Source: Planctomycetota bacterium (GTDB lineage Bacteria; Planctomycetota; Phycisphaerae; UBA1845; UTPLA1). Taken from it: a DNA stretch of 64,000 nucleotides. The notes below the pieces were generated by a model. The model was not told where the DNA came from, made no database searches, and was given only the letters and a program-made list of their open reading frames with translations. Positions within the stretch are counted from its first letter, which is position 1; the number at the start of each line of letters is the position of its first letter. The position numbers were made by a program, and so were the translations under genes. The stretch covers positions 113,772-177,771 of the forward strand of contig JADJRI010000009.1 in the NCBI GenBank assembly GCA_016712275.1, given 5' to 3'. This document shows, in pieces, positions 41,245-55,068 of this stretch.

Positions 41245-42855
41245 ATGGACGTCCTGCATAGCAAGCTGAGCAGTTCCGATCCGGTCTTCAAGGAAAACAC
41301 TGACCACATGGCGGGGCTCGTCAAAGACCTGCGTCGTCGCGTCGCCGTCGTGAAGCAGGGGGGCGGCGAGGCGGCGGTCGCCAAGCATCGCGGTCGCGGC
41401 AAGCTCGTCGCGCGCGATCGCATCGACCGGCTGATCGATCAGGACAGCCCCTTTCTTGAATTGAGTCCGCTCGCCGCCAACGACCTGTACGACAACGGCG
41501 CGCCGTCGGCCGGCATGGTCAGCGGTATCGGCCGCGTGCAGGGTCGCGAGTGTGTCATCGTCGCGAACGATGCGACTGTGAAGGGCGGCACCTATTACCC
41601 GATGACGGTGAAGAAGCACCTGCGGGCGCAGGAGATCGCTCGCGAGAATCACCTGCCGTGCATTTACCTGGTCGATTCGGGCGGCGCGTTTCTGCCGATG
41701 CAGGACGAGGTCTTCCCCGATCGCGACCATTTCGGGCGCATCTTCTACAACCAGGCGCAAATGTCGGCGCTCGGTATTCCGCAGATCGCCGTCGTCATGG
41801 GGTCGTGCACCGCGGGTGGGGCGTATGTTCCCGCGATGAGCGACGAGACGGTGATCGTCCGAAACCAGGGGACGATCTTTCTCGGCGGCCCGCCGCTTGT
41901 GAAGGCTGCGACGGGAGAGGAAGTCAGCGCCGAGGATCTGGGCGGCGCGGATGTTCACTGTCGCACCAGCGGCGTGGCGGATCACTATGCGTTGAACGAT
42001 GAAGATGCGCTTGCCATCACACGGAGCATCGTCGCGAATTTCAATACGAAGCCGCGATCACACATCGGCATGACCGCGGCCGAGGAGCCGTTGTACGATC
42101 CGCGCGAAATCTATGGCGTGATCAACAAGGATATTCGCAAGCCATACGATGTACGCGAGGTCATCGCGCGAATCGTGGATGGCAGCCGGCTGCACGAGTT
42201 CAAAGCGCTGTACGGCAACACGCTCGTCACGGGCTTCGCGCACATCTGGGGATATCCCGTCGGCATTGTCGCGAACAACGGTGTGCTCTTCAGTGAGAGT
42301 GCCCAGAAGGCGGCACACTTCATTGAGATGTGCAGCGTGCGGCGGATACCGCTTGTCTTTCTACAGAACATCACCGGGTTCATGGTCGGCCGGAAATATG
42401 AGTCGGGCGGCATCGCGAAGGACGGCGCGAAGATGGTAGCGGCTGTGTCCAACGCGAGCGTGCCCAAGTTCACCGTCATCATCGGCGGCTCCTACGGGGC
42501 GGGGAATTACGGCATGTGCGGCCGGGCGTATCAGCCGCGGTTTCTGTGGATGTGGCCCAACGCGCGGATCAGCGTGATGGGCGGCGAGCAGGCGGCCAAC
42601 GTGCTTCTCACGGTCAAGAAGGACCAGCTCGCGGCGAAGGGTGGCAAGGCGATGACATCCGGCGAGGAGGAGGAGTTCAAGCGGCCCACGCTGGAGAAGT
42701 ATGATGTCGAAGGCAGTGCGTATTACAGCACGGCGCGGCTGTGGGACGACGGCGTCATTGATCCGGCGGACACGCGGATGGTGCTGGGGCTCGGCATCTC
42801 GGCGAGTCTGAATGCGCCGTGGCCTGAGCGGAAAGTCGGCGTGTTCCGCATGTAA
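41245..42855 (+). CDS. Methylcrotonyl-CoA/propionyl-CoA carboxylase beta subunit (carboxyltransferase)
   Basis: A 536-aa intact ORF with carboxyltransferase N and C domains ([28 protein letters not shown]; [19 protein letters not shown]; [18 protein letters not shown]). Confidence 0.85.
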
Positions 42856-43001
42856 GTCCGCCAAATGCCGGAGGGAGCCACTTGGCGAGACGGAGGCTTC
42901 GTGGCGCCGAGTTGCGGGCGTCTGGTGAAGTAGATGCCTACACTCTGGCACTGCGCCACTTCGCGCTAGCTGATCGCTTCTCCTGCTCCTTCGTCGACAG
43001 C

Positions 43002-44810
43002 TTACCCTGCCCTTTCCATATACATTTGATGCAATAATACGAGCGTCCAGAGGTTCTCGAATTCCAGACGGCTCATGTGCGGGAGGCGGCGTTCGAGAGC
43101 TGCTCGATCGACCAGTTCGCCGAAGCCGTCGTCGCTCGCGAATTTCGCGTCGATGACTGCCTTGCAATCGGTCGGCATGGCGAATGGCGGGCGGCGTCCC
43201 TTGATCATTCGGCGAATAGTTTCGGTCATCGGGACTGGAAGGCTCATCGCCAGGCGCTTCAGCCGGTACTTGAGCGAGCGGATCGGGCTCGACATCGGCA
43301 CGCCAAGTCCGGCCTCCACGACGGCGGCAGCCTGGGGCGACACCTTCCTTAGAAAGGCGACGTACAGCGCGTCGCGCGATTTGACGGCGTCGGGAACGCG
43401 CATCGTCCGCTCGAAGATGGAGAAGTAATTGAAGGGCGAAGTCTGCCAGAGGAAGAATCGCGCGCGGTCTTCGCCGGGGAAAAGCCAGTTCATGCCGCGA
43501 TCGTAGCGGCGGAAGTGGACGGCCTTTTGTGCGACGGATTTTTCGGGATAAGAGTTGAGGCGATCGCGAAGCGATGATTCGAGCGCGCCCGGCGGGAGTC
43601 GCATGATGGATTCGGCTTCGCGGACGGGCGTCGCTTTGTTGTGGGGACGCAGAAGGCCTGCAACATATTGATCGATCGTGAGCGATTCCGCAGGGCGAAG
43701 GTCTGGGAAGATGAAGTCGCCGCCGTCGCCGGTGATGTAGATCGCGTCGTCGCCCCAGTCGGAGACGAGCTGTTCGAGAAAGAGGAGCAGCGACCCGTGG
43801 GCGATGGAGTTCGTGCCGGAGAGCGCCCGCAGCAGGAATTGCTCCGCGTCCGGCGACGGCTGGCCGAGGCGGTAGAGCCGCCACGGGATGTTGAGCGCGG
43901 CCGCCAGGGATTCGGCTGCCACGGCATCGGCACTGGCGACGCCGTGGGCATCGAGGTATGTGGCGGCGACGCATGGGATTTTTTCCCGCGCGAAGAGGCC
44001 GGCGACGACGCGCGAATCCTTGCCGCCGCTGAGGCTGAGGATGCGCTTGCCGGGCAGCGCCGGAAGAAGCGAGCGGGCGGCAGTGTTCGGCCCAGAGGCC
44101 CGCGGAGTTCGTCGGCATAGGCGTCGGCGGATGTGCCGGGGGCGTCTTTCTCGTCGAAGTTGGATGGAGTACGTGGTGTGGAGGGCGGCTTTGACCCGGC
44201 TTCCATCGAGCCGGACATCGAACACCGCGCCGCCCGGGGCGTGGTCGATGCCTTCCCAGAAGGTTCGTGCGCCGATGAGATGGCGGAAGACGAGCGCCTG
44301 CGCCCAGGCGAGGCGGTCGAACTGCCTTGCGGCCGAGAGGCGGACGACGACATCGCATTCGCGCGAGATGATGACGCCGGCGTCGCTGCGGTGCCAATAG
44401 AGTGGCAGTCTGGTGAAGGGGTCGGCGAAGACGATGGCGCGCCTCGCCGTGGGGTCGAGCATGGCGACGACATACTCGCCTTCGTTCGCGCGCGTCCAGG
44501 CGGCCAGCCGATCGCGGGGGAGCGTATCGCCCGCGAAGAGGGCATCGGCCAACGCGCGGAGGTCGTCGAGGACGGCGGCGACATCGTCGCGATAGATGCG
44601 GCCTTCGAGGGTGATGGTTCGCGCGCCGGCGGTGATGGTCTGCACGGGGTAGGTTGGCCGACCGGTGTGGCCGACGAAGAGGCCTTCGGCGGTATGGACG
44701 ATCGAGGTTTGATCGCGCGGTGAGAATTTCCGGGCATCGAGGGCGGCGCGGAAGCGGACGGCCGCTTGGGGTGCGTCTGACGGCGTGATCCAGAGCGAAA
44801 GTCCGGGCAT
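43002..44810 (-). CDS. Asparagine synthetase (AsnB)-family amidotransferase
   Basis: A 602-aa ORF with the PP-loop (ILSLSGGKDSRVVAGL) and AsnB C-terminal domain features. The N-terminal glutaminase domain lacks an obvious Cys-1. An Arg-rich linker (RRERRPRHIRRRLCRRTPRAS) may hide a compensated double frameshift. Confidence 0.65.
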   Translation of the reverse strand: MPGLSLWITPSDAPQAAVRFRAALDARKFSPRDQTSIVHTAEGLFVGHTGRPTYPVQTITAGARTITLEGRIYRDDVAAVLDDLRALADALFAGDTLPRDRLAAWTRANEGEYVVAMLDPTARRAIVFADPFTRLPLYWHRSDAGVIISRECDVVVRLSAARQFDRLAWAQALVFRHLIGARTFWEGIDHAPGGAVFDVRLDGSRVKAALHTTYSIQLRRERRPRHIRRRLCRRTPRASGPNTAARSLLPALPGKRILSLSGGKDSRVVAGLFAREKIPCVAATYLDAHGVASADAVAAESLAAALNIPWRLYRLGQPSPDAEQFLLRALSGTNSIAHGSLLLFLEQLVSDWGDDAIYITGDGGDFIFPDLRPAESLTIDQYVAGLLRPHNKATPVREAESIMRLPPGALESSLRDRLNSYPEKSVAQKAVHFRRYDRGMNWLFPGEDRARFFLWQTSPFNYFSIFERTMRVPDAVKSRDALYVAFLRKVSPQAAAVVEAGLGVPMSSPIRSLKYRLKRLAMSLPVPMTETIRRMIKGRRPPFAMPTDCKAVIDAKFASDDGFGELVDRAALERRLPHMSRLEFENLWTLVLLHQMYMERAG

Positions 44811-44849
44811 GCGGGTTCGGTTCCTCCGGGTCGATCATCGGCCAGCGCG

Positions 44850-45500
44850 GGGGAAATCAACGGAGGGGAGAAATGAAAAATTGAAAATGAAAAAGGAAAA
44901 AGTGGGGGAGGGTACGAGGGGCCGAGGGGGCAAGGGGCCGAGTGGGGAGCGGGTTGGGGCGGGGAGTTCAGGGGGTTCGGGGGTTTTCGGGACCGTTGAA
45001 ATTAGTTGATTTTTCAGGAGGGGCGGGATGGGGAAGGGGATTTCGGAGGCGGGGTCGGCGCTCCGGGGATGGGGAAAATTCAGGCGGGGGGTGAATGGTG
45101 ACAAGTTCAAGTTTGCATCAAGCTGTTTGTTCCGTGCGCGTTCAAGCATACGAGTGCCTCCGGCATGACAGTGAGGTCATGCGGCGGGCGCGGGCGAATG
45201 TAATGTCGTGCCGGGGATAGAGTTGCTCAGCGATCCGGTGTGCGCGCGAACGCGTTGAAAAGGGGAGGGGGAATGGGGGTTTTCGGGGGCATTCGTGCGG
45301 GGTTAGGGCGAGTTTTTGACGAGGTCAGGGAGTGGTTTTGAGGGCGAACGCGGTTATTGATAGCGAGAAAGCGGGTGCGCTCGATTTGCAGAATGTGCGA
45401 CGAAAGTGGGTTCCGGCGCGCAGATTTCGTTCGGTGGCGAAATAGCATCGCCGGGGTTGAAACCGTTGGGGTGGGAATAATCGAGCCCCCAAATGGTTAC
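44850..45500 (+). other. Polypurine / G-run-rich non-coding tract (plus strand), with potential to form G-quadruplex or H-DNA
   Basis: About 650 nt with almost no C in its first ~170 nt and many G4-G6 runs (ggggagaaatgaaaaattgaaaatgaaaaaggaaaaagtgggggagggtacgaggggccgagggggcaaggggccgagtggggagcgggttggggcggggag...). The tract lies between two minus-strand genes. Confidence 0.5.
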
Positions 45501-45522
45501 GCTCTGGGCACCCGCCTCTGAG

Positions 45523-47511
45523 TCAGATCGTGACAAAGCCGATTGCACTTAGATACTCAAACGTGGGATCGTAGAAAGCGTGCTTTCTCGTAGGATCGAC
45601 TGCTTCCCCTTCCGGAATCACGATCACCATCCCTTGGCGGGCTCGGGTCAGCAAGACACGATAGGCATTCTTAAGGTACATTTGGCGCTCTGGCTTCCGA
45701 ATTCGATTCCATCGATCGCCACAGAAGGACCAGTGCTGCCAGCCAGCGTCAGTGTAGCGAAAGTCACCATCCCAAGTGACACACGCCCAGTCAAGTTCGA
45801 GGCCCTGCACCTGAAACTCCGTCGCAACATCTTCCAGATAGTAGGACGACCGCACATCTTCTTTGGCGTTCAGGAACCAGTTGCACGGGTCGATCTTTGT
45901 GCGAACGTCAATCGCGTGAGGCTTCAGCCGTTGGGCCTCAGATGAAACGACGATGCCATATCGCTCGGTGCCACGGGCATGTGTTCTGATCCAGTCCTTA
46001 GCAGCCCGAAGGTCACGCGTTAAGACAATTGGATAATTCGGAGAGACTTGGCTGAGCGTCTGACGTGCGGAATCCGGCTCCAGGTCGAGCAGTTCTTTCA
46101 CCAGCCGTGAGACATTTTCCGCCCCGAAAGCTCCGCATCGAGACCGACAAATGAAGTTCGTCTCTTTTGAAGACGTGCGGTCGCGATTCAATTTTTCGTA
46201 GAACTTCTCCAGCTCCAAATTCGCTGTCTGTGAGGTTTGAGGATAGATAGACCCGCCACTTAGGGAACCGATCGTGGACGGCATTAATCCACTCGCTGAT
46301 CCCTGCCTCACCCCGATTTATCTCCTGGCCGCCACCAACGAGACATACAATAACGGCCCAGTCCAAGTGTCGATCCATACAAGAAACTAGAAACTCGGGC
46401 TCCGAGTATTTGAAGTCGCTACGACCCTTCTTCTGTTGCATGAAGCTCCGGGTCCTTTCGAGCGTCCAAGCCCGTTGCGCTTCGTCAAAGATAGCAACGT
46501 GCTCGATTGGCGCTGACCATCCCTAAGGCATTCATCTCTGAATCTGTGGATGATCTGTATGAACGCTTGAACTTCGCTGTGGACAGTGCCTTTGGTGACC
46601 TTGTTCCCACGCTCCTTTTCGTAGCGAACTTTGTCGCGGGCGAGTGCCTCCCGCAGCACCTTCACCAGGGGATCGTTTCCAGAGAGGAATACGCTGTAGA
46701 GTTCGCTGTCTTTGTTAATGTGCTTCGTCGCGATATTGAGTCCGACGAGGGTCTTTCCAGCGCCTGGAACGCCCGTCACAAAGCAGATAGATTTCTCGCG
46801 GCGGTCTCGCGAGGTGTTGATGATTTCATCAATCGTGCTTGTCGTGAGCTGGAGATTGATCGCGCTGGCGTCGCTGCGGGAAATCTCGGCGACCGAGTGG
46901 CCGTTGTAGAGTGCCATGGCGGCTTCGACGATGGTCGGCGTGGGATGATAGCGTCCATCTTCCCAGACGCGAGTATCGATGGCGCCGCCTTGGGTGAAGT
47001 CGAGCACCTTGCGAATGACATCCGCGAGTGTTTCAGGCGTGCCATGAATTGGCGTAAGTATGTCGTCGTGTGCGCGGATGAGTTCGCCCTGCGCGGGTGC
47101 TCTTCGTGCGCCCGTTGGAATCAAGATCGGGGCGATGGGACGCGTGTGGCTGGTTTCATGAAAGTTCTTCAGGTCTAGTGCGTAGTCCCAGACTTGATCT
47201 GTTGCGTGACTTGTGAACCGTTCTTCGCCGACTTTGAATTCGAGGATGAAGATCACCGGGCCGATGAGTGCGAGTACGTCAATTCGTTTTCCGAGTCGGG
47301 GTATGGAGTACTCGAAATAAACAGAGCCTTGCGCGCGATATGGTTCGAGAATGGGCTTGAGGATTCTGATCTGTTCGAGCCAAGCGGTTGATTGAGTGGA
47401 TTCGAGACTGCTTCCACTGGTTGCGGCGCTGCGGGAGAGTCTCCCGAGGATTTCGTCCTGCGATTGATCCAGGAAGTTGGCGATCGAATCTGAGTAGTAA
47501 GCCCGGTCCAT
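45523..47511 (-). CDS. PD-(D/E)xK nuclease-like N-domain + DUF2075 P-loop NTPase/helicase-like protein, split by two frameshifts
   Basis: The N-terminus has a D...EFK motif ([22 protein letters not shown]). The Walker A is [20 protein letters not shown]. The middle part is in the 46013..46441 ORF ([19 protein letters not shown]), and the C-terminal part in 45523..46311 ends with [21 protein letters not shown] is lower than the genome background. Confidence 0.7.
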
Positions 47512-47828: not shown

Positions 47829-48240
47829 GGTGACGATTGTTCACCGGCGTGACGCCGGTGCCACAGCGCCGTGGCGGACGCTGCGATTTGGTATATCACA
47901 CGATGTTGGGAGTGCGTGTCGGGCTGGAATCGGGCGTTGGCCTTGCTGGGGAGCATGCCGACGCGAAAGGCCGTCGGCATGGCACACGAGGGTGACGATT
48001 GTTCACCGGCGTGACGCCGGTGCCACAGCGCCGTGGCGGACGCTGCGATTTGGTATGTCACACGATGTTGGGAGTGCGTGTCGGGCTGGAATCGGGCGTT
48101 GGCCTTGCTGGGGAGCATGCCGACGCGGAAGGCCATCGGCATGGCACACGAGGGTGACGATTGTTCACCGGCGGGACGCCGGTGCCACAGCGCCGTGGCG
48201 GACGCTGCTGGACGCCGATGCCCCAGCGCCATGACGGACG
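47829..48240. repeat. Tandem repeat array: 162-bp unit x 2.3 copies (about 98% identical) plus an adjacent diverged partial unit
   Basis: Units start at 47829, 47991 and 48153. Each unit contains four perfect hairpins: catgccgacg-cgaaaggc-cgtcggcatg, ggtga-cgattgt-tcacc, ccggcg-tga-cgccgg and gccac-agcgcc-gtggc. A diverged copy of the 50-nt sub-unit follows at 48200-48250. Confidence 0.85.
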
Positions 48241-48299
48241 GTGTGCTTTGGCATGTCACCCGACAGGTACGACTGTTTGGCGCGGAGGATCGGCTGCGG

Positions 48300-49067: not shown

Positions 49068-49135
49068 GTTCTTTCGCCCCTCCGGGGCTTAGGGTTCTTT
49101 GCTCCTTTACCCACGGCCTACGCCTGAGGTATCCA
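49068..49135. repeat. Degenerate copy of the triple-hairpin dispersed repeat
   Basis: The sequence is gttctttcgcccctccggggcttagggttctttgctcctttacccacggcctacgcctgagg. Hairpin 1 is intact and hairpin 2 is degenerate. Confidence 0.4.
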
Positions 49136-49534
49136 TACATCTTGGCGCTCTGATTCGCGTCGTTACGCGATCATTGACGCGTCGCTTTGCGGCCGCCTTC
49201 CTCCGCCCCATCCGGGGCGGAAAAGCCTGCGGCGATTTCCCACGGGTTCCGCTTCGCTCCACCCGTGGCCACATTCCAATGTCCCTGCCGGGACTGATGA
49301 CGAGCGACATTGCGGGATGAGGGGCTTCTCGACGCCGATAAAGTTGAACTGCCGCTTCAATGGACTCGGACGAGTTCGCCTTCCATCCGCGACAGGAAGC
49401 GACGCGACTTGTGCAGCTACGTCAGACTTACTCCGCGGGTCAATGTCTTTCGACGCTGCCGCGGCTGTGGCACTTCTCCGGCATCGTCGGCCCGGGCGCG
49501 GCGACGTTTCCGCCGCCGCGCCGTGGGCCTTCGA

Positions 49535-50674
49535 CTACACAGCACTGTTTGACGCCGCGTTCTGGCCGATCAGGCTGCGCACCTGATTTGACAGATCGCC
49601 CTGTCCGAAGACGAACGTCGCCTTCGCGCCTGACAGGATCTCCTGCAACAGTTCAAGCTCCCTGAGCCGTGCGAGGGTCGGGTTTTCGGCGAGCAGTTTG
49701 GCGGTGTTCGCCTGGCTGCGCGCCGCGGCCGTCTCCTCGCGCCGGCGGATCAGGTTCGCCTCGGCCTGCTTCTCCGCGGCGATGACCTGGTTCAGGATCG
49801 TCTTCATGTCGCCCGGCAGGATGATGTCGCGCAGACCCACCGACACGACGTTGACACCAAACTCCGACGCCCGCTTCGCGAGGGCCTCTCGGACTTCGCC
49901 GCCGATCGACTCCTTGTCGCGGAGCAGTTCGTCGAGCGGCCGCACGCCGACCGCCGCGCGCAGGGCGAGCTGCGCCTCGCGGTAGAGCGTCTGGCTATAG
50001 TTGTCGACATTCATGACAGCGGCCACGGGATCGATGACCCGGTAGGTGACGACGAGATTCACGCGGAGCGTGACCTTGTCGCGCGTCATGATTTCCTGTC
50101 CCGCGACGTCCGCCACGAGTTCGCGCCGGTCCACGGACTTCCAGGTCACCTTGCCGGCGCCCTTCCAGTAAACGTGGCTTCCCTCGCCGACGGTTTCGAT
50201 GAGCTTGCCGTCGCGGAAGATCATGGCGGTCTCGTGTGCCGCGACTTCGACACCGGTCAGGTGCAGGCTCGTGCCGGCCAGCGCACAGATGGCCTCGATG
50301 CGCGGGTGGTTGAGCTTGAACTCGCCGATGTCGTGCGTCTCGACCTTCAAGTCGGCCGGCGCACGCCAGAAGGCGTGACGGCCCGGGCCGAGCAGCGCGA
50401 AGAGCTTGTCGTTGCGCCAGACGATGGCGCGCTCCTGGTCGCCGAGTTCGATCAGCATGAGCTGGTCGCGGATCGAATCGTGCTGCACGATGAGATCAAG
50501 CAGCTGGTGTTCGAAGCGCACGCCCAGCGTATTGACAATCTGCACCTCGTCGCGCCGGGCGCTGATGAGGCGGCTCGGGAACCAGTAGGTTCCGGGCATC
50601 AAGAGGCGTGCGAAGTTGCCATGGCGGAAATGCAGGCCGCGCTCATGTTGACGGATACGGACAATCGGGTTCAT
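49535..50674 (-). CDS. SPFH/band-7 (stomatin/HflC-like) domain protein
   Basis: SPFH-like segments are present (VTLRVNLVVTYRVIDPVAAVMNVDNYSQTLYREAQLALRAAVG), followed by a coiled-coil tail. The start was taken at the internal Met (MNPIVRIRQ). Confidence 0.65.
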   Translation of the reverse strand: MNPIVRIRQHERGLHFRHGNFARLLMPGTYWFPSRLISARRDEVQIVNTLGVRFEHQLLDLIVQHDSIRDQLMLIELGDQERAIVWRNDKLFALLGPGRHAFWRAPADLKVETHDIGEFKLNHPRIEAICALAGTSLHLTGVEVAAHETAMIFRDGKLIETVGEGSHVYWKGAGKVTWKSVDRRELVADVAGQEIMTRDKVTLRVNLVVTYRVIDPVAAVMNVDNYSQTLYREAQLALRAAVGVRPLDELLRDKESIGGEVREALAKRASEFGVNVVSVGLRDIILPGDMKTILNQVIAAEKQAEANLIRRREETAAARSQANTAKLLAENPTLARLRELELLQEILSGAKATFVFGQGDLSNQVRSLIGQNAASNSAV

Positions 50675-50738
50675 AACGCACCTCCTTTCAGGGTGCCGGT
50701 GGCTCGACACGAATTTCGCATCGTCGCCCGTGGAAACA

Positions 50739-50832
50739 CTCTTTCGCCCCTGCCGGGGCTGACGACTCTAGTTTGCCATTACCCACGGCTTGCGCCCGTG
50801 GGCTAATCTCTTTCGCCGCTGCCGCGGCTTTT
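50739..50832. repeat. Triple-hairpin dispersed repeat, copy B
   Basis: The sequence is ctctttcGCCCCtgccGGGGCtgacgactctagtttgccattaCCCACGGcttgcgCCGTGGGctaatctctttcGCCGCtgccGCGGCtttt. Confidence 0.7.
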
Positions 50833-51284
50833 CGTATGCCGCTTGCGAGGCTTCTCGTATGCCGCGACTGTGGCATCTGTTCGGAGCTTCCGCTGCCGTC
50901 CGTCGGCCGTACTGACGGCCTTATGTTCATGCCGCGTGGTCGCGGCGGTTGGTTTCAAACTTCCCGCGGAATCGGATTCGAGGAACGATCGAGCCTTTGC
51001 GGCCGGCGGAATCCCGCGCTATGCCCGACGCCTGTCGCACGGATTTGACCGGCGTCTCCGCCTCCCCGCGGCGAGCACCGGTCGAATGCTGTTTGGCGGC
51101 GTCGGGCCGACACTTCGGGATTTCTGAGCCGGCTGTCAGAGTGCCGGCACGCCTCGCCTGTATGAGCGCGGTGCGTGGCGGCTGCTCGATTGTGCGTCAT
51201 CCTCCGATCCCACGGGCCGTGCGATTTCTCGCTCTCTTCGGTGACAGCGAAGTGGGGATTTTTTTGCCCTTCCCCTGAGGGCTC

Positions 51285-51358
51285 TGGTTGTCTGGACGGG
51301 ATTTGAACCCGTATCCCACAGCTTAAGAGGCTGTTGCTCTCCATTGAGCTACCGGACG
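51285..51358 (-). tRNA. tRNA-Lys(CTT) with an encoded CCA end. The acceptor stem has two C-A mismatches.
   Basis: On the minus strand the cloverleaf reads: CGTCCGG (acceptor 5' strand), TA, GCTC-AATGGA-GAGC (D arm), A, ACAGC-CTCTTAA-GCTGT (anticodon arm, with anticodon CTT), GGGAT (variable loop), ACGGG-TTCAAAT-CCCGT (T arm), CCAGACA (acceptor 3' strand), A (discriminator), CCA. The acceptor pairs 1-72 and 5-68 are both C-A. Confidence 0.6.
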
Positions 51359-51621
51359 GGCGAACTGCTACTTTCGACGCCGTTGCCAGAACACGCATCG
51401 GAGAATCGCACACGGACTCATGCGCGCTGGCGGCTGGAGCGTTTCGCCATTCTGTCAGTTCCGGGCGCGGAATCTCCGCATGCACTTGGTCGCCGCCAGC
51501 TTTGATGAGCGAGCGAGGATCAGGCGCGGAGTGTCCGTGCGGCGCGAAGGGGTTAACCACCCCGCGATCGGAACAGGTATTCAGTTTTGCGGAAGACGGC
51601 CCGAGTCACCGAGGGGAAACA

Positions 51622-51660
51622 AAAAAGCCCCGGAGACTCGCATCTCCGGGGCTTTTGAAG
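51622..51660. terminator. Bidirectional intrinsic terminator with no obvious CDS upstream
   Basis: AAAAAA is followed by the hairpin gccccggagactcgcatctccggggc and then TTTT. Confidence 0.55.
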
Positions 51661-52087
51661 CGCACAATCATGGCACTCAATATCCCGGAGAATGGCCGAT
51701 CAGGCCGCTGAAGTCTTTAGATTCTGCTAATATCTGATTCACTTCATTCTCCGAGAAAAACAGGCTTTTCAGAGACAATTCCCCACACAGGGTTCGAGAA
51801 ATATACAGTCGCATTTTCGAAAGTCAATTGAAAAGTTGAGAATGTTCGGCGAAACAAAGCGAAGAGTGTCAATGCGTCGTCTGCCGTGTCGGCGAGCGAT
51901 GGGCGACTGTCGAATTACGCGGCGAATGGTTGCTCAGGCGGACACAGTCGCGTGAAGGGCAGCCTCAATTCTTTATCGAGCGTTTTCCTGGGCTGCGAGC
52001 GGTCGATGGCTTTCGAGGGCGTTCGCTTTTCGGTAACCTGTTACGAAGGATCATCACTGAAGTCTGCAACTGATTGAGGGGTTTGAC

Positions 52088-52876
52088 ATGCCTGAGTTCG
52101 TTCAAATCACGGTCGCCGATCGGATCGCGTCGGTCACCATCAACCGGCCGGAGCTGCACAATGCGTTCAACGAGGTTGTGATCTCGGAGTTGACCGAAGC
52201 GATGGAGGCGGCCGGCGGCGATCCGGAGGTTCGCGTCGTCGTGCTGCGGACGGAGGGGAAGAGCTTCTGCGCCGGGGCGGACGTGAACTGGATGAAGCGG
52301 ATGGTGGATTACTCATTTGAGGAGAACGTTTCGGACGCGATCGACATGGCGAACATGCTCCGCGCGATTCGGGAGTGTTCGAAGCCGGTGATCGGACGGA
52401 TTCACGGGGCGGCGATCGGCGGCGGCGTTGGGCTGGCGGCGGCGTGTGACATGGCGGTGGCAGTAAAGTCGGCGATCTTCTGCCTGAGCGAGGTGAAGCT
52501 CGGGATCCTGCCGGCGGTGATTTCGCCTTACGTGATGGAGAAGATGGGGCCGGGGCCAATGCGGCGTTACGCGCTGACGGCGGAGAAGTTCGACGCGAAT
52601 GAGGCGCATCGGCTGGGGCTGGTGTCGCATGTGGTGGATGACGACGCGGGGCTCGATGCGTGGATTACCGAAACGGCGAAGACGCTGATGGCGAATGGTC
52701 CGGAGGCGCTGGCGGCCTGCAAGGAAGTTCTCGCGGACGTTCAGGAGCGGAAGCGGTGGGGTGCGAAGCAGCGATTGACGGTGAAGCGCATCTCGCGGCG
52801 GCGCGTGTCGGAAGAAGGGCAGGACGGATTGAAGGCGTTTCTGGAGAAGCGGAAGGCGAAGTGGGTGAGGGAGTAG
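52088..52876 (+). CDS. Enoyl-CoA hydratase/isomerase family (methylglutaconyl-CoA hydratase-like)
   Basis: Crotonase-fold motifs are present: ITINRPELHNAFNEVVISEL, VVVLRTEGKSFCAGADVNWM, IGRIHGAAIGGGVGLAAACDMAVA. Confidence 0.8.
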   Translation: MPEFVQITVADRIASVTINRPELHNAFNEVVISELTEAMEAAGGDPEVRVVVLRTEGKSFCAGADVNWMKRMVDYSFEENVSDAIDMANMLRAIRECSKPVIGRIHGAAIGGGVGLAAACDMAVAVKSAIFCLSEVKLGILPAVISPYVMEKMGPGPMRRYALTAEKFDANEAHRLGLVSHVVDDDAGLDAWITETAKTLMANGPEALAACKEVLADVQERKRWGAKQRLTVKRISRRRVSEEGQDGLKAFLEKRKAKWVRE

Positions 52877-52943
52877 CGTGATGGCTCACACGTCACTTGT
52901 ACTTCAATGACCTCATGACTGGCTTGGCTCCGGATTCCATTTA

Positions 52944-53462
52944 ATGGATATCGAAATGAGCAGTGATGAACTGAGATCAAAGCTTGACGCCGCGCGTCGG
53001 GAGCGGTGGCTGGGAGAGTGGAAACTGCGGCAGTGGCCGACGGTGGCGGGTGAATTCGCAGGAAATCTCTCTCACGCGAATCTGCTGACGGCTCGGCAGA
53101 TTGAAGCGATTGCTGATCGAATTCAGCCCACTCTCCTGCAATTCTACAACTTCACTCCAACTCGATTCTATTCCACGGATCGCACGGCGATTGTGGCCGC
53201 GCTGGAGGCCATTCGCGACGGAGAACGTGAGCTCGAATGCACGCTTCTTCTTCGGGATGGCCAGGGAATAGCGGGCATCCGGGCGCAGACGAGCGAATTG
53301 ATCCCGATGTGCGAAAAGTTGTGCGTGGTGGATCTACAGGATGTCGTCGTCATCTGGGAAGAGGGGCGACGGGGGATTCTGCTGGAGCGACAGTCTCATG
53401 ACGAAGAGGGACGGGCTTTGCCGACTTGCTACCTTCGCACTTGGGGCTGCAAATGGACCTAA
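52944..53462 (+). CDS. Hypothetical protein
   Basis: A 172-aa ORF with protein-like composition. I recognise no family. Confidence 0.35.
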   Translation: MDIEMSSDELRSKLDAARRERWLGEWKLRQWPTVAGEFAGNLSHANLLTARQIEAIADRIQPTLLQFYNFTPTRFYSTDRTAIVAALEAIRDGERELECTLLLRDGQGIAGIRAQTSELIPMCEKLCVVDLQDVVVIWEEGRRGILLERQSHDEEGRALPTCYLRTWGCKWT

Positions 53463-53613
53463 CCAGCGATCGCCGGAACAATTCCGAAGGCCCATCACGC
53501 GGCTGATGCTGCGCGGAGAACGCGAGGTGAACAGAATTGGCGGTGAACGAGGTCAATGCATGCTACAGTCACCTGACGTCGGTATCCCAGGTGACTAACC
53601 CGCGACAACTTTC

Positions 53614-53706
53614 CTCTTTCGCCCCTGCCGGGGCTGAGGATGTCATGCGTTGGGCACCCACGGCTGACGCCGTGGGCTAATCTCTTTCGCCGCTGCCGCG
53701 GCTGGG
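53614..53706. repeat. Triple-hairpin dispersed repeat, copy C
   Basis: The sequence is tctttcGCCCCtgccGGGGCtgaggatgtcatgcgttgggcaCCCACGGCtgacGCCGTGGGctaatctctttcGCCGCtgccGCGGCtgggg. Confidence 0.75.
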
Positions 53707-53837
53707 GAGGACGATTATTGCTGCGGTAGCTGGGGAAGGTGATTGTTGCTGCCTCGGTTAGAGAGGGCCATCGCCGCTGTCGCGGGTGGGGCGCTTCCGA
53801 ATTGATAAGAATGTCGCGTCGATCTCGGCAAAGAGCT

Positions 53838-53930
53838 TCTTTCGCCCCTGCCGGGGCTGAGGATGTCACACTAATGGCACCCACGGCTGACGCCGTGGGC
53901 TAATCTCTTTCGCCGCTGCCGCGGCTGGGG
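53838..53930. repeat. Triple-hairpin dispersed repeat, copy D (near-identical to copy C), followed by a fourth partial hairpin at 53955-53985
   Basis: The sequence is tctttcGCCCCtgccGGGGCtgaggatgtcacactaatggcaCCCACGGCtgacGCCGTGGGctaatctctttcGCCGCtgccGCGGCtgggg. The partial hairpin downstream reads tctttcGTCGCtgccGCGGCgggg. Confidence 0.75.
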
Positions 53931-54102
53931 TGCAACATCGTGGCACTCGCGGTTTGCGCGTGGATAGTTGTCTTTCGTCGCTGCCGCGGCGGGGATCGGT
54001 GCGGTCATAGCGACGATGACTTGTATTCATTCCTCGCGGTTCCGCGCGGGCGCCGACTCTGGGTTTGTGATGTGTACTTGTCGTTAAGTCGGTCGATCGC
54101 GA

Positions 54103-55068
54103 TCAGTTGGATGATGTGTCTGTGTTCGATTTCTGATCGGCCTTGGACTTTTTCACATAGATCCCATCGAAATAGGGCTTCCACGTCTTTCCGTTGTCGT
54201 CGGAGTGTTCGATGAAGTGGCGGACTTTGCCGTCTTTCTGGGGGGTTAGGGTGCCGCGGGCGAGGGCGGGTTTGCCGCGCTGCGGGGTATGGGTGCCGGT
54301 GAAGTGCATGGCGCCGTCTTTGATTTCGCCGTCGTAGCGGACGACGGAGCCGCTGCCGTCGACCCAGACTTGCTTCCACTTGCGGTCGTCCGGGTCGATG
54401 AAGTTGCTGCTCTGGCCTGTGTTACCCTGCATGTTGGACCAGTGTTCGAGGATGAGGCAGCCGTTCTCGACCTTTTCGATGCGGTTTGTTCCGAGCTGGT
54501 TGCCCTGGGGGTCGAAGACGTCCCAGTCGCCGACCCAGAAATCGAATTCGGTGACGAGGCTGGCGATGGGGTTGGCGCGGCGCTTGAGCGGTTCGAATCG
54601 ATCATCGGAGCGAAGGGACTTGAGATCGGCGTCGCTTTCGAGCTGGCTGGCGTCGCTGAATCCGGCTTCGACGGCCTCGCCGAGTGCCTTGAAGGCGGCA
54701 TCCTTGTCGCCTTTCAGCGCGAGGGCGCATCCGAGGTTGTAGAGGCCGACGGGGCGGAAGCGGGGGAATTCCGCGGTCTTTTTGTGGACTGGAATCGCCT
54801 TATCGTATTCGCCGAGATTGTGGTAGGCGAAGCCGAGCCGGTACCAGGCCATGCCGTTCTTCGGTTCCGACTTCGTGATCAATTCGTAACCCTCGGCGGC
54901 CCCCTTCCAGTCCTGTTTGCGGAAAGCCTCGTCGGCGGCCTTGGCGCTTTGCCCGGCCGATTTAGAGTCGCCGGGCTCAAGGGCCTGGGCCGGCCTTGAG
55001 ATGCCGGGGGCGACGACTGTAAATGCGATGAGGGTTCGAAGGACTCCGGTCCTGATGGAAGAAAACAT
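54103..55068 (-). CDS. Secreted TPR-repeat protein with a C-terminal beta-rich domain
   Basis: The signal peptide is MFSSIRTGVLRTLIAFTVVAPGISRPAQA. TPR-like helices follow (AAEGYELITKSEPKNGMAWYRLGFAYHNLGEYDKAIPVHKKTAEF...). Confidence 0.55.
   Translation of the reverse strand: MFSSIRTGVLRTLIAFTVVAPGISRPAQALEPGDSKSAGQSAKAADEAFRKQDWKGAAEGYELITKSEPKNGMAWYRLGFAYHNLGEYDKAIPVHKKTAEFPRFRPVGLYNLGCALALKGDKDAAFKALGEAVEAGFSDASQLESDADLKSLRSDDRFEPLKRRANPIASLVTEFDFWVGDWDVFDPQGNQLGTNRIEKVENGCLILEHWSNMQGNTGQSSNFIDPDDRKWKQVWVDGSGSVVRYDGEIKDGAMHFTGTHTPQRGKPALARGTLTPQKDGKVRHFIEHSDDNGKTWKPYFDGIYVKKSKADQKSNTDTSSN

Follow-up and report, generated by a model that had tools for sequence, protein, structure and literature searches.

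Three-hairpin repeats of a Planctomycetota contig belong with Acido-Lenti-1 and are probably REP-like DNA elements of an IS200-like Y1 transposase

A stretch of 64,000 nucleotides from a Planctomycetota bacterium (GenBank assembly GCA_016712275.1, contig JADJRI010000009.1, positions 113,772 to 177,771), hereafter called the window, was found to contain a cluster of repeat units of about 92 nt, each built of three short hairpins. Five full-length units were located with a covariance model, every one on the + strand: three are intact (B, C and D) and two are decayed (A1 and A2). Together with three fragments they span 4.9 kb. The 3' two-thirds of the unit are the Rfam family RF01687 (Acido-Lenti-1). 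In related loci, inverted units enclose the gene of a Y1 (HUH) transposase of the IS200-like type. The units are therefore best read, with fair confidence, as DNA repeats similar to repetitive extragenic palindromes (REPs) and their doublets (REPINs), belonging to a system of the REPtron type whose transposase is an IS200-like Y1 protein, and not as a small-RNA gene. At the level of the family, for which about 200 related loci form the basis, Acido-Lenti-1 is likely to be the single-stranded DNA substrate of a vertically inherited IS200-type transposase, a further REPtron lineage spread across many phyla.

Family identity and architecture of the unit

The unit consists of a leader TCTKYC, a 5-bp hairpin (hairpin 1), a T, a variable spacer of about 21 nt, an 8-bp hairpin (hairpin 2, CCCAnnnC-TnAC-GnnnTGGG), a linker CTAnnnTCTnYC, a second 5-bp hairpin (hairpin 3) and a T. 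A covariance model of this whole unit, R1, with 92 positions and three hairpins, was built from 31 units of other genomes. A MAFFT alignment of 83 units (alignment A1) misplaced hairpin 3 because the loop lengths differ, and a subset with uniform loops (alignment A2) was used in its place for model building.

Hairpin 2, linker and hairpin 3 of units C and D matched RF01687 from end to end with 47.8 bits (cmscan), the gathering score of the family being 37 bits. Unit B remained under this score (32.1 bits, E = 2×10−4) because of a 1-nt bulge in its hairpin 2. Rfam annotates RF01687 as ‘Gene; sRNA’ of unknown function, and its model does not include the conserved 5' hairpin and spacer of the unit. 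The Acido-Lenti-1 motif was described by Weinberg et al. 2010 from 89 sequences (87 in the supplementary alignment as tabulated here) and was rated a probable RNA by covariation (PMC2864571). Its sources were Lentisphaera araneosa, Koribacter versatilis, Rhodopirellula baltica, a Geobacter and metagenomes, with many copies in L. araneosa, often in tandem and 69-200 nt apart (PMC2864571). The published copies resemble the units of the window in being multicopy and often tandem, and they come from Acidobacteria, Lentisphaerae and Planctomycetes (PMC2864571).

Related loci, at least 120 in number, were fetched with a degenerate hairpin-2 pattern which fixed the outer part of hairpin 2 and left hairpins 1 and 3 unconstrained; all counts on these motif-selected loci are among the matches listed. 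The majority came from Acidobacteriota, the others from Planctomycetota, Verrucomicrobiota, Victivallales, Bacteroidota, Cloacimonadota, Sumerlaeia and further groups. R1 located 177 units in 100 motif-selected loci, and the three-hairpin layout of the window was seen at nearly every match. Of 170 units from many phyla, 155 have a perfect 5' hairpin, which in most cases precedes hairpin 2 by 20-28 nt and follows TCTKYC; it is also visible in the L. araneosa copies contained in an extract of the published supplement. This recurrence identifies the triple hairpin, proposed as the unit from the window alone, as a true conserved unit. Its boundary is sharp: conservation begins at the leader and ends exactly past the CT after hairpin 3 (C in 148/150 and T in 149/150 units).

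A Y1 transposase gene between inverted units

Inverted units 500-800 nt apart were found to enclose an open reading frame (ORF) of 143-150 amino acids. The ORFs between such wider pairs of a − unit followed by a + unit (‘-+’) belong to Pfam Y1_Tnp, with E-values of 1×10−21 to 1×10−27. They scored 56-70 bits against the NCBIfam IS200/IS605 model, just above its cut-off of 55, and the closest solved structures are the TnpA proteins of ISDra2 and ISHp608. Their tyrosine motif, Y---Q--HH, is the one that marks subclass 1.2 in Quentin et al. 2018. In at least seven of the 120 motif-selected loci listed, the Y1 gene was directly flanked by inverted units.

The association was also assessed in the reciprocal direction. 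Eighty metagenome loci were fetched by the protein alone and then scanned with R1, upon which 79 of the 80 proved to carry units, 211 in total. The (-)gene(+) layout occurred in 59/80 loci, with median gaps between gene and unit of 1.5 and 4 nt. Within 700 nt of the gene, the left units were 78 ‘-’ and 19 ‘+’ and the right units 80 ‘+’ and 23 ‘-’. The Y...Q..HH motif was kept in 77/80 of these proteins.

Units and gene are closely interlocked in many of the protein-selected loci (L121-L200). The reversed hairpin 1 supplies, with its loop and 3' arm, the GGAGG ribosome-binding site of the Y1 gene at 7-8 nt upstream of the start codon. The reversed spacer upstream often holds a TATAAT-like motif, and the Y1 stop codon and the leader of the downstream unit overlap in many loci.

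The left unit is present beside a homologue of the Y1 gene on a Persicobacter (Bacteroidota) plasmid. A Bernardetia plasmid homologue (38% identity; NZ_CP147018.1, locus L201) has no R1 unit and is flanked by different palindromes, so the association is not valid for every relative of the protein. Upstream of this homologue, at L201 1330-1500, AT-rich palindromes (GTTGCAGAGCAACGTAAT / ATTACGTTGCTCTGCAAC) recur, which may be another cognate repeat.

The Y1 locus was syntenic across contigs whose flanks are just 66-75% identical (L140, L158, L170/L182). Such synteny in diverged contigs points to vertical inheritance of the gene, as for the REP-associated tyrosine transposases (RAYTs), and not to the hopping of an insertion sequence (IS).

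Doublets, single units and the transposition debris alternative

Among 50 neighbouring unit pairs in the motif-selected loci, 42 were ‘-+’, three ‘+-’ and five ‘++’. In the ‘-+’ doublets the hairpin-1 ends abut, head to head, with a typical distance of 81-132 nt from the 5' end of one hairpin 2 to that of the other. At 31 doublets, target-site duplications did not exceed the chance level (observed 24/5/2, shuffled 22/6/2). Together with the Y1 gene between inverted units, these doublets support the REP- and BIME-like reading (BIME, bacterial interspersed mosaic element) that the original prediction had put forward. They also agree with its statement that the repeats are not miniature inverted-repeat transposable elements (MITEs): a DDE-type MITE was rejected on the direct ends of the units in the window and on the lack of duplication at the 31 related doublets. 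Equally, a CRISPR array (clustered regularly interspaced short palindromic repeats) was discarded, as predicted, since unit starts in the window follow each other at irregular distances of 129, 1541, 2875 and 223 nt with genes in between.

In loci L010, L017, L018, L048 and L076, all from Acidobacteriota / Terriglobia metagenome-assembled genomes (MAGs), the doublets consistently pair two distinct unit subtypes with different spacers and a different hairpin 3 (GCCGC versus GGCCC), reminiscent of the Y/Z heterodimers in E. coli BIMEs. The doublets of L014, L091 and L003 show inverted symmetry running 5-12 nt past the CT boundary, e.g. AAGTCCGGTTTT|AG...CT|AAAACCGGACTT, which suggests insertion into, or co-option of, a pre-existing palindrome.

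Single units were located preferentially on the G-rich strand (43:15, p = 3×10−4). On the + strand of the window the GC skew is +0.10 to +0.18 where the units sit. This bias and the positive skew of the window's unit strand fit strand-specific targeting.

The strongest competitor, though still unlikely, is that the repeats are the ends or deletion derivatives (similar to MITEs or to palindrome-associated transposable elements, PATEs) of an active IS of the IS200 family. A block of about 630 bp, unit-gene-unit, would then transpose and the copies in the window would be its debris. The score of the protein as an IS200/IS605 family transposase, its nearest structures (ISDra2 and ISHp608 TnpA), the doublets, which resemble the block minus its gene, and a second, truncated copy of the Y1 gene in locus L092 all speak for this. 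However, the ends of IS200/IS605 elements are asymmetric with direct hairpins and the flanks here are inverted, the gene keeps its chromosomal context despite the low flank identity given above, and for subclass 1.2 a low copy number and no IS properties have been reported (Quentin et al. 2018, PMC6006769). The synteny of the gene in diverged contigs also speaks against a genome with several near-identical copies of the entire element. Moreover, units far exceed genes, as the gene was present in about eight of the 120 motif-selected loci listed, and decay of doublets alone cannot yield same-strand single and tandem units such as those of the window.

Stem covariation and the small-RNA alternative

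In 150 units, 98.3% of the stem cells were standard pairs. Double-sided changes were found at 15 of 18 stem pairs (302 cells), a result matched by 0 of 500 shuffles, and slid controls were far below it. All three stems covary strongly in related genomes. Out of 2652 stem cells, 2590 were Watson-Crick pairs, 16 G·U and 29 A·C, so that G·U was no commoner than A·C. Neither strand tolerates G·U, as a functional RNA would on its own strand. The wobble counts fit palindromes that are kept perfect at the DNA level and not an RNA.

In a single-stranded DNA fold of unit C, the outcome for both strands was three local hairpins or an alternative of equal stability (z about −3.5). For C and D (53613-53707 and 53836-53930) the regions of hairpins 1 and 3 pair with each other in the minimum-energy fold, both modules being near-identical palindromes. 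Covariation across the family favours the local hairpins over this pairing.

That the units are a multicopy structured small RNA, as listed in Rfam, transcribed and acting through RNA hairpins by protein binding or regulation in trans, we hold to be very unlikely. C and D do exceed the RF01687 gathering score, the motif was rated a probable RNA by Weinberg et al. 2010 (PMC2864571), and the covariation extends to all three stems. Against this stand the rarity of G·U relative to A·C on either strand, the predominance of inverted doublets, which are alike on both strands, and the position of units within 1-4 nt of a single-stranded DNA transposase gene on both of its sides. In the window, the intact units lack both a promoter-like site and a U-tail, and their orientation ignores the direction of the neighbouring genes. 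The indirect indications of an RNA role thus came out negative in three respects, with low G·U, inverted doublets and no promoter or terminator signature. The label ‘sRNA’ for Acido-Lenti-1 is probably a misreading of DNA-level palindromes.

Units and fragments in the window

All copies and partial copies named in the original prediction were present, with coordinates right within 1-2 nt according to sequence reading and a repeat finder, and its minimum of four copies within 5 kb was exceeded. Unit A1 (49068-49145, +; R1 28.7 bits, E = 1×10−5, and fold) is decayed: hairpin 1 is intact (GCCCC-tcc-GGGGC), hairpin 2 degenerate and hairpin 3 gone. Unit A2 (49197-49297, +; R1 23.8 bits, E = 2×10−4) is diverged and retains three hairpins, with an enlarged loop in hairpin 2 (CCACGGGT...ACCCGTGG) and a compensatory change in hairpin 3 (GTCCC-tgcc-GGGAC). 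It folds as DNA into three local hairpins with z = −3.6. A 5'-truncated unit (TCTTTCGACGCTGCCGCGGCT; 49427-49470, +; repeat family D1 and pattern match) holds the 3' arm of hairpin 2, the linker and hairpin 3, and is 82% identical to the equivalent part of C and D.

Unit B (50738-50831, +) is intact, with an R1 score of 60.1 bits (E = 1.5×10−13) and 32.1 bits for RF01687. It had been described as a regular three-hairpin copy; the hairpins are indeed there, but besides its bulge hairpin 2 has a TTGC loop. B is located 64 nt upstream of the start of an SPFH gene, on the opposite strand.

Unit C (53613-53705, +) scored 66.9 bits with R1 and 47.8 bits with RF01687 on 53657-53703. It is composed of the leader TCTTTC (53615-53620), hairpin 1 (53621-53634), the spacer (53636-53656), hairpin 2 (53657-53676), the linker CTAATCTCTTTC (53677-53688), hairpin 3 (53689-53702) and the terminal T (53703). 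Unit D (53836-53928, +; R1 68.5 bits, E = 1×10−15; RF01687 47.8 bits on 53880-53926; repeat family D2) is 94% identical to C, all differences lying inside one 7-nt spacer block. Both C and D are followed by GGGG. Two solo modules of the form ‘TCTTTCG-hairpin-CT’ accompany them: a hairpin-3-like module between C and D (TCGCCGCTGTCGCGGGTGGGG; 53771-53794, +; repeat family D4) and a leader-plus-hairpin module (TCTTTCGTCGCTGCCGCGGCG; 53969-53992, +; pattern match with two mismatches, repeat family D1).

The 21-nt leader-plus-hairpin module TCTTTCGCCSCTGCCGSGGCT was counted eight times (two mismatches or fewer), all on the + strand, compared with 0.00 in shuffles of the window. A TCTTTCG before each hairpin, as first described, holds for hairpins 1 and 3; hairpin 2 follows the variable spacer of about 21 nt. 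The sequence ‘ctaatctctttc’, taken as trailing the unit, turned out to be the internal linker from hairpin 2 to hairpin 3. R1 and pattern scans revealed nothing similar to the units in the other 59 kb of the window. The units of the window are most similar to those of Verrucomicrobiota MAGs, at most a hint as to their source. A comparison of the unit with plasmid records, and of the window-specific pattern with viral contigs, gave no match. Neither did an exact 29-nt scan of genome contigs or an exact look-up of the enoyl-CoA hydratase of the window.

Gene surroundings

All units and fragments fall between long ORFs, in agreement with the predicted intergenic placement. The genes concerned are the SPFH/Band-7 gene (49535-50674, −), a tRNA-Lys gene (51285-51358, −), an enoyl-CoA hydratase gene (52088-52876, +), a hypothetical gene (52944-53462, +) and the gene of a tetratricopeptide repeat (TPR) protein (54103-55068, −). 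Unit orientation is independent of the direction of these neighbours.

Units selected as host cis elements and not mobilised, i.e. as terminators, stabilisers of mRNA 3' ends or sites of nucleoid proteins, are given very little credence as the main explanation, and such a role may coexist as a secondary use. Secondary roles of this kind do exist for E. coli REPs, all units of the window are intergenic, and several lie between convergent genes (the A cluster; C and D). However, seven terminator-like sites were counted versus 5.5 ± 2.1 in shuffles, a short T-run is confined to the tail of B, and B is upstream of and antisense to its neighbouring gene. A generic hairpin role would also leave unexplained both the conservation of sequence-specific loops and linkers across phyla and the tight linkage to the transposase. 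The suggestion that the hairpins are stacked terminators found no support: intrinsic terminators were rejected on the same counts and because C and D run into GGGG with no T-run. An integron attC site was likewise set aside, as the R''/R' GTTRRRY consensus is not visible in the units, although no formal test was made.

The GC skew of the + strand is about 0 at 28-40 kb of the window and rises to +0.10 to +0.18 at 40-64 kb, which is unusually strong. Just upstream of the unit cluster, at 48000-48244, a 47-nt element is present in three direct copies, of which two share 98% identity at a distance of 162 nt. Each copy holds the palindromes CACCGGCG(T/G)GACGCCGGTG and GCCACAGCGCCGTGGC. The element is a repeat family distinct from the units and overlaps long ORFs on both strands. 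The adjacent ORFs 45523-46311 and 46387-47511 (−) match a single Schlafen-group-3 helicase domain in its C-terminal and N-terminal part, respectively, and may be a split or frameshifted gene. Beside them lies an ORF of 825 amino acids with no Pfam match and a low third-position GC (0.53). Together, the ORFs of 42361-47511 may be a defence or island segment. The segment 51623-51656 forms a perfect hairpin of 14 bp (AAAAGCCCCGGAGA...TCTCCGGGGCTTTT), bordered by A/T runs on either side. It is unrelated to the repeat family and looks like a bidirectional intrinsic terminator.

Proposed mechanism and weighing of the REP-like reading

For REP-like repeats served by a Y1 protein, a complete system would consist of a gene of about 147 amino acids between two adjoining inverted units, each with its hairpin-1 end toward the gene, accompanied by gene-less head-to-head doublets (REPIN-like) and by single and tandem units dispersed between genes. 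The hairpins would fold in DNA that is transiently single-stranded at the replication fork. The Y1 protein would then bind them, most likely at hairpin 2, where the loop is invariant and a CTA lies alongside, and would cut and rejoin at the invariant terminal CT, so that units could be copied or moved with no target-site duplication. The models for this proposal, by analogy, are the TnpA proteins of IS608 and ISDra2 and the E. coli TnpA-REP. TnpA-REP enzymes cleave a CT located 5' or 3' of REP hairpins, and TnpA of IS200/IS605 works on folded single-stranded DNA (PMC8266576). The units of the window are all on the same strand, dispersed or in tandem; the gene of the transposase would have to sit elsewhere in its genome.

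Several observations weigh against this interpretation. No Y1 gene was found in the window (best tblastn E = 0.13, with only noise down to E = 50), the cognate partner of the window's own copies is thus a putative one, and the all-direct arrangement of these copies differs from the commonest form in related loci. A look-up of a RAYT had been advised; it led to the Y1 transposase between inverted units in related loci, which is IS200-like and not a classical RAYT, as it scored 25.7 bits against NCBIfam REP_Tyr_transpos with a cut-off of 80. The REP foot GT[AG]G does not occur in the Rfam orientation; the other strand has NTAG before hairpin 2, with GTAG in only some units. The strand bias is confounded with gene direction. 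The pair counts derive from motif-selected loci chosen with the outer part of hairpin 2 fixed and from an alignment fitted to the model. Finally, an all-against-all comparison of the loci gave no ‘empty sites’, hence no polymorphism of insertion or excision, and the mobility of the units is inferred.

In the window, same-strand units bracket the SPFH gene, and also the block of tRNA-Lys, enoyl-CoA hydratase and hypothetical gene, an arrangement resembling the left and right ends of an IS200/IS605 element. A Y1 protein acting in trans could conceivably excise and reinsert such host segments as single-stranded circles, a gene-cassette mobilisation based on Acido-Lenti-1, but we regard this as extremely improbable.

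Comparison with known systems

Elements of this kind are already known from REP/REPIN-RAYT systems and from TIRtrons. In the literature searched, no account was found of Acido-Lenti-1 as such a repeat, of the three-hairpin unit or of its spread across phyla. The window by itself is ordinary, a local cluster of genomic repeats, and the interest is moderate and at the level of the family. If the proposed reading is true, a family that has stood in Rfam since 2010 as a small RNA without known function would have to be moved to the DNA-level repeats, as the partner of a Y1 transposase; the present evidence favours this. The REP/RAYT concept of a domesticated single-stranded DNA transposase with its own palindrome population would reach a second Y1 branch, the IS200-like subclass 1.2. 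One repeat architecture would be recognisable in Acidobacteriota, Planctomycetota, Verrucomicrobiota, Lentisphaerota, Bacteroidota and others. With three hairpins and invariant CT ends, the unit is also a compact substrate for biochemistry on the choice of cleavage sites.

The REP/REPIN/BIME-RAYT REPtrons of Escherichia, Pseudomonas and Stenotrophomonas (PMC2817692, PMC3116915, PMC8266576) likewise consist of short multicopy extragenic palindromes with head-to-head doublets. Shared as well are a transposase gene between inverted repeats, apparently low-copy and syntenic, an invariant CT beside the hairpins, as at the cleavage sites of TnpA-REP, and the lack of target-site duplication. Unlike a REP, which is a single palindrome of 20-40 nt and usually species-specific, the unit combines three hairpins in 92 nt and has no 5' GT[AG]G foot in the Rfam orientation, and its sequence is conserved across several phyla. 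The partner protein is IS200-like (Y---Q--HH), unlike the class 2 RAYTs (YI..NP).

In TIRtrons (Di Nocera et al. 2013, PMC3733652), genes of tyrosine transposases (TIRYTs) are similarly placed between long inverted repeats, some of them self-complementary, and the repeats also occur single, dimeric and grouped in genomes, Acidobacteria included. The paper contains neither the three-hairpin unit nor an identity to Acido-Lenti-1 (PMC3733652). The TIRYT proteins are RAYT-like (WQ...Y...NPV) and belong to a different clade from the partner Y1 protein (PMC3733652); they were rejected as the same proteins on the RAYT-type motifs of the published alignment.

With IS200/IS605 elements (IS608, ISDra2) the partner protein has its fold and motifs in common (HUH, catalytic Tyr), whereas their ends are asymmetric with direct hairpins and the units flanking the gene here are reverse complements of each other. 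The closest match of the protein is subclass 1.2 of Quentin et al. 2018, which has the same Y---Q--HH signature and low copy number and for which no repeat family or associated structures were reported (PMC6006769). Bertels et al. 2017 described a ‘RAYT-like IS200 Group 3’ with abundant flanking 16-mers, which may be the same clade as the partner Y1 protein.

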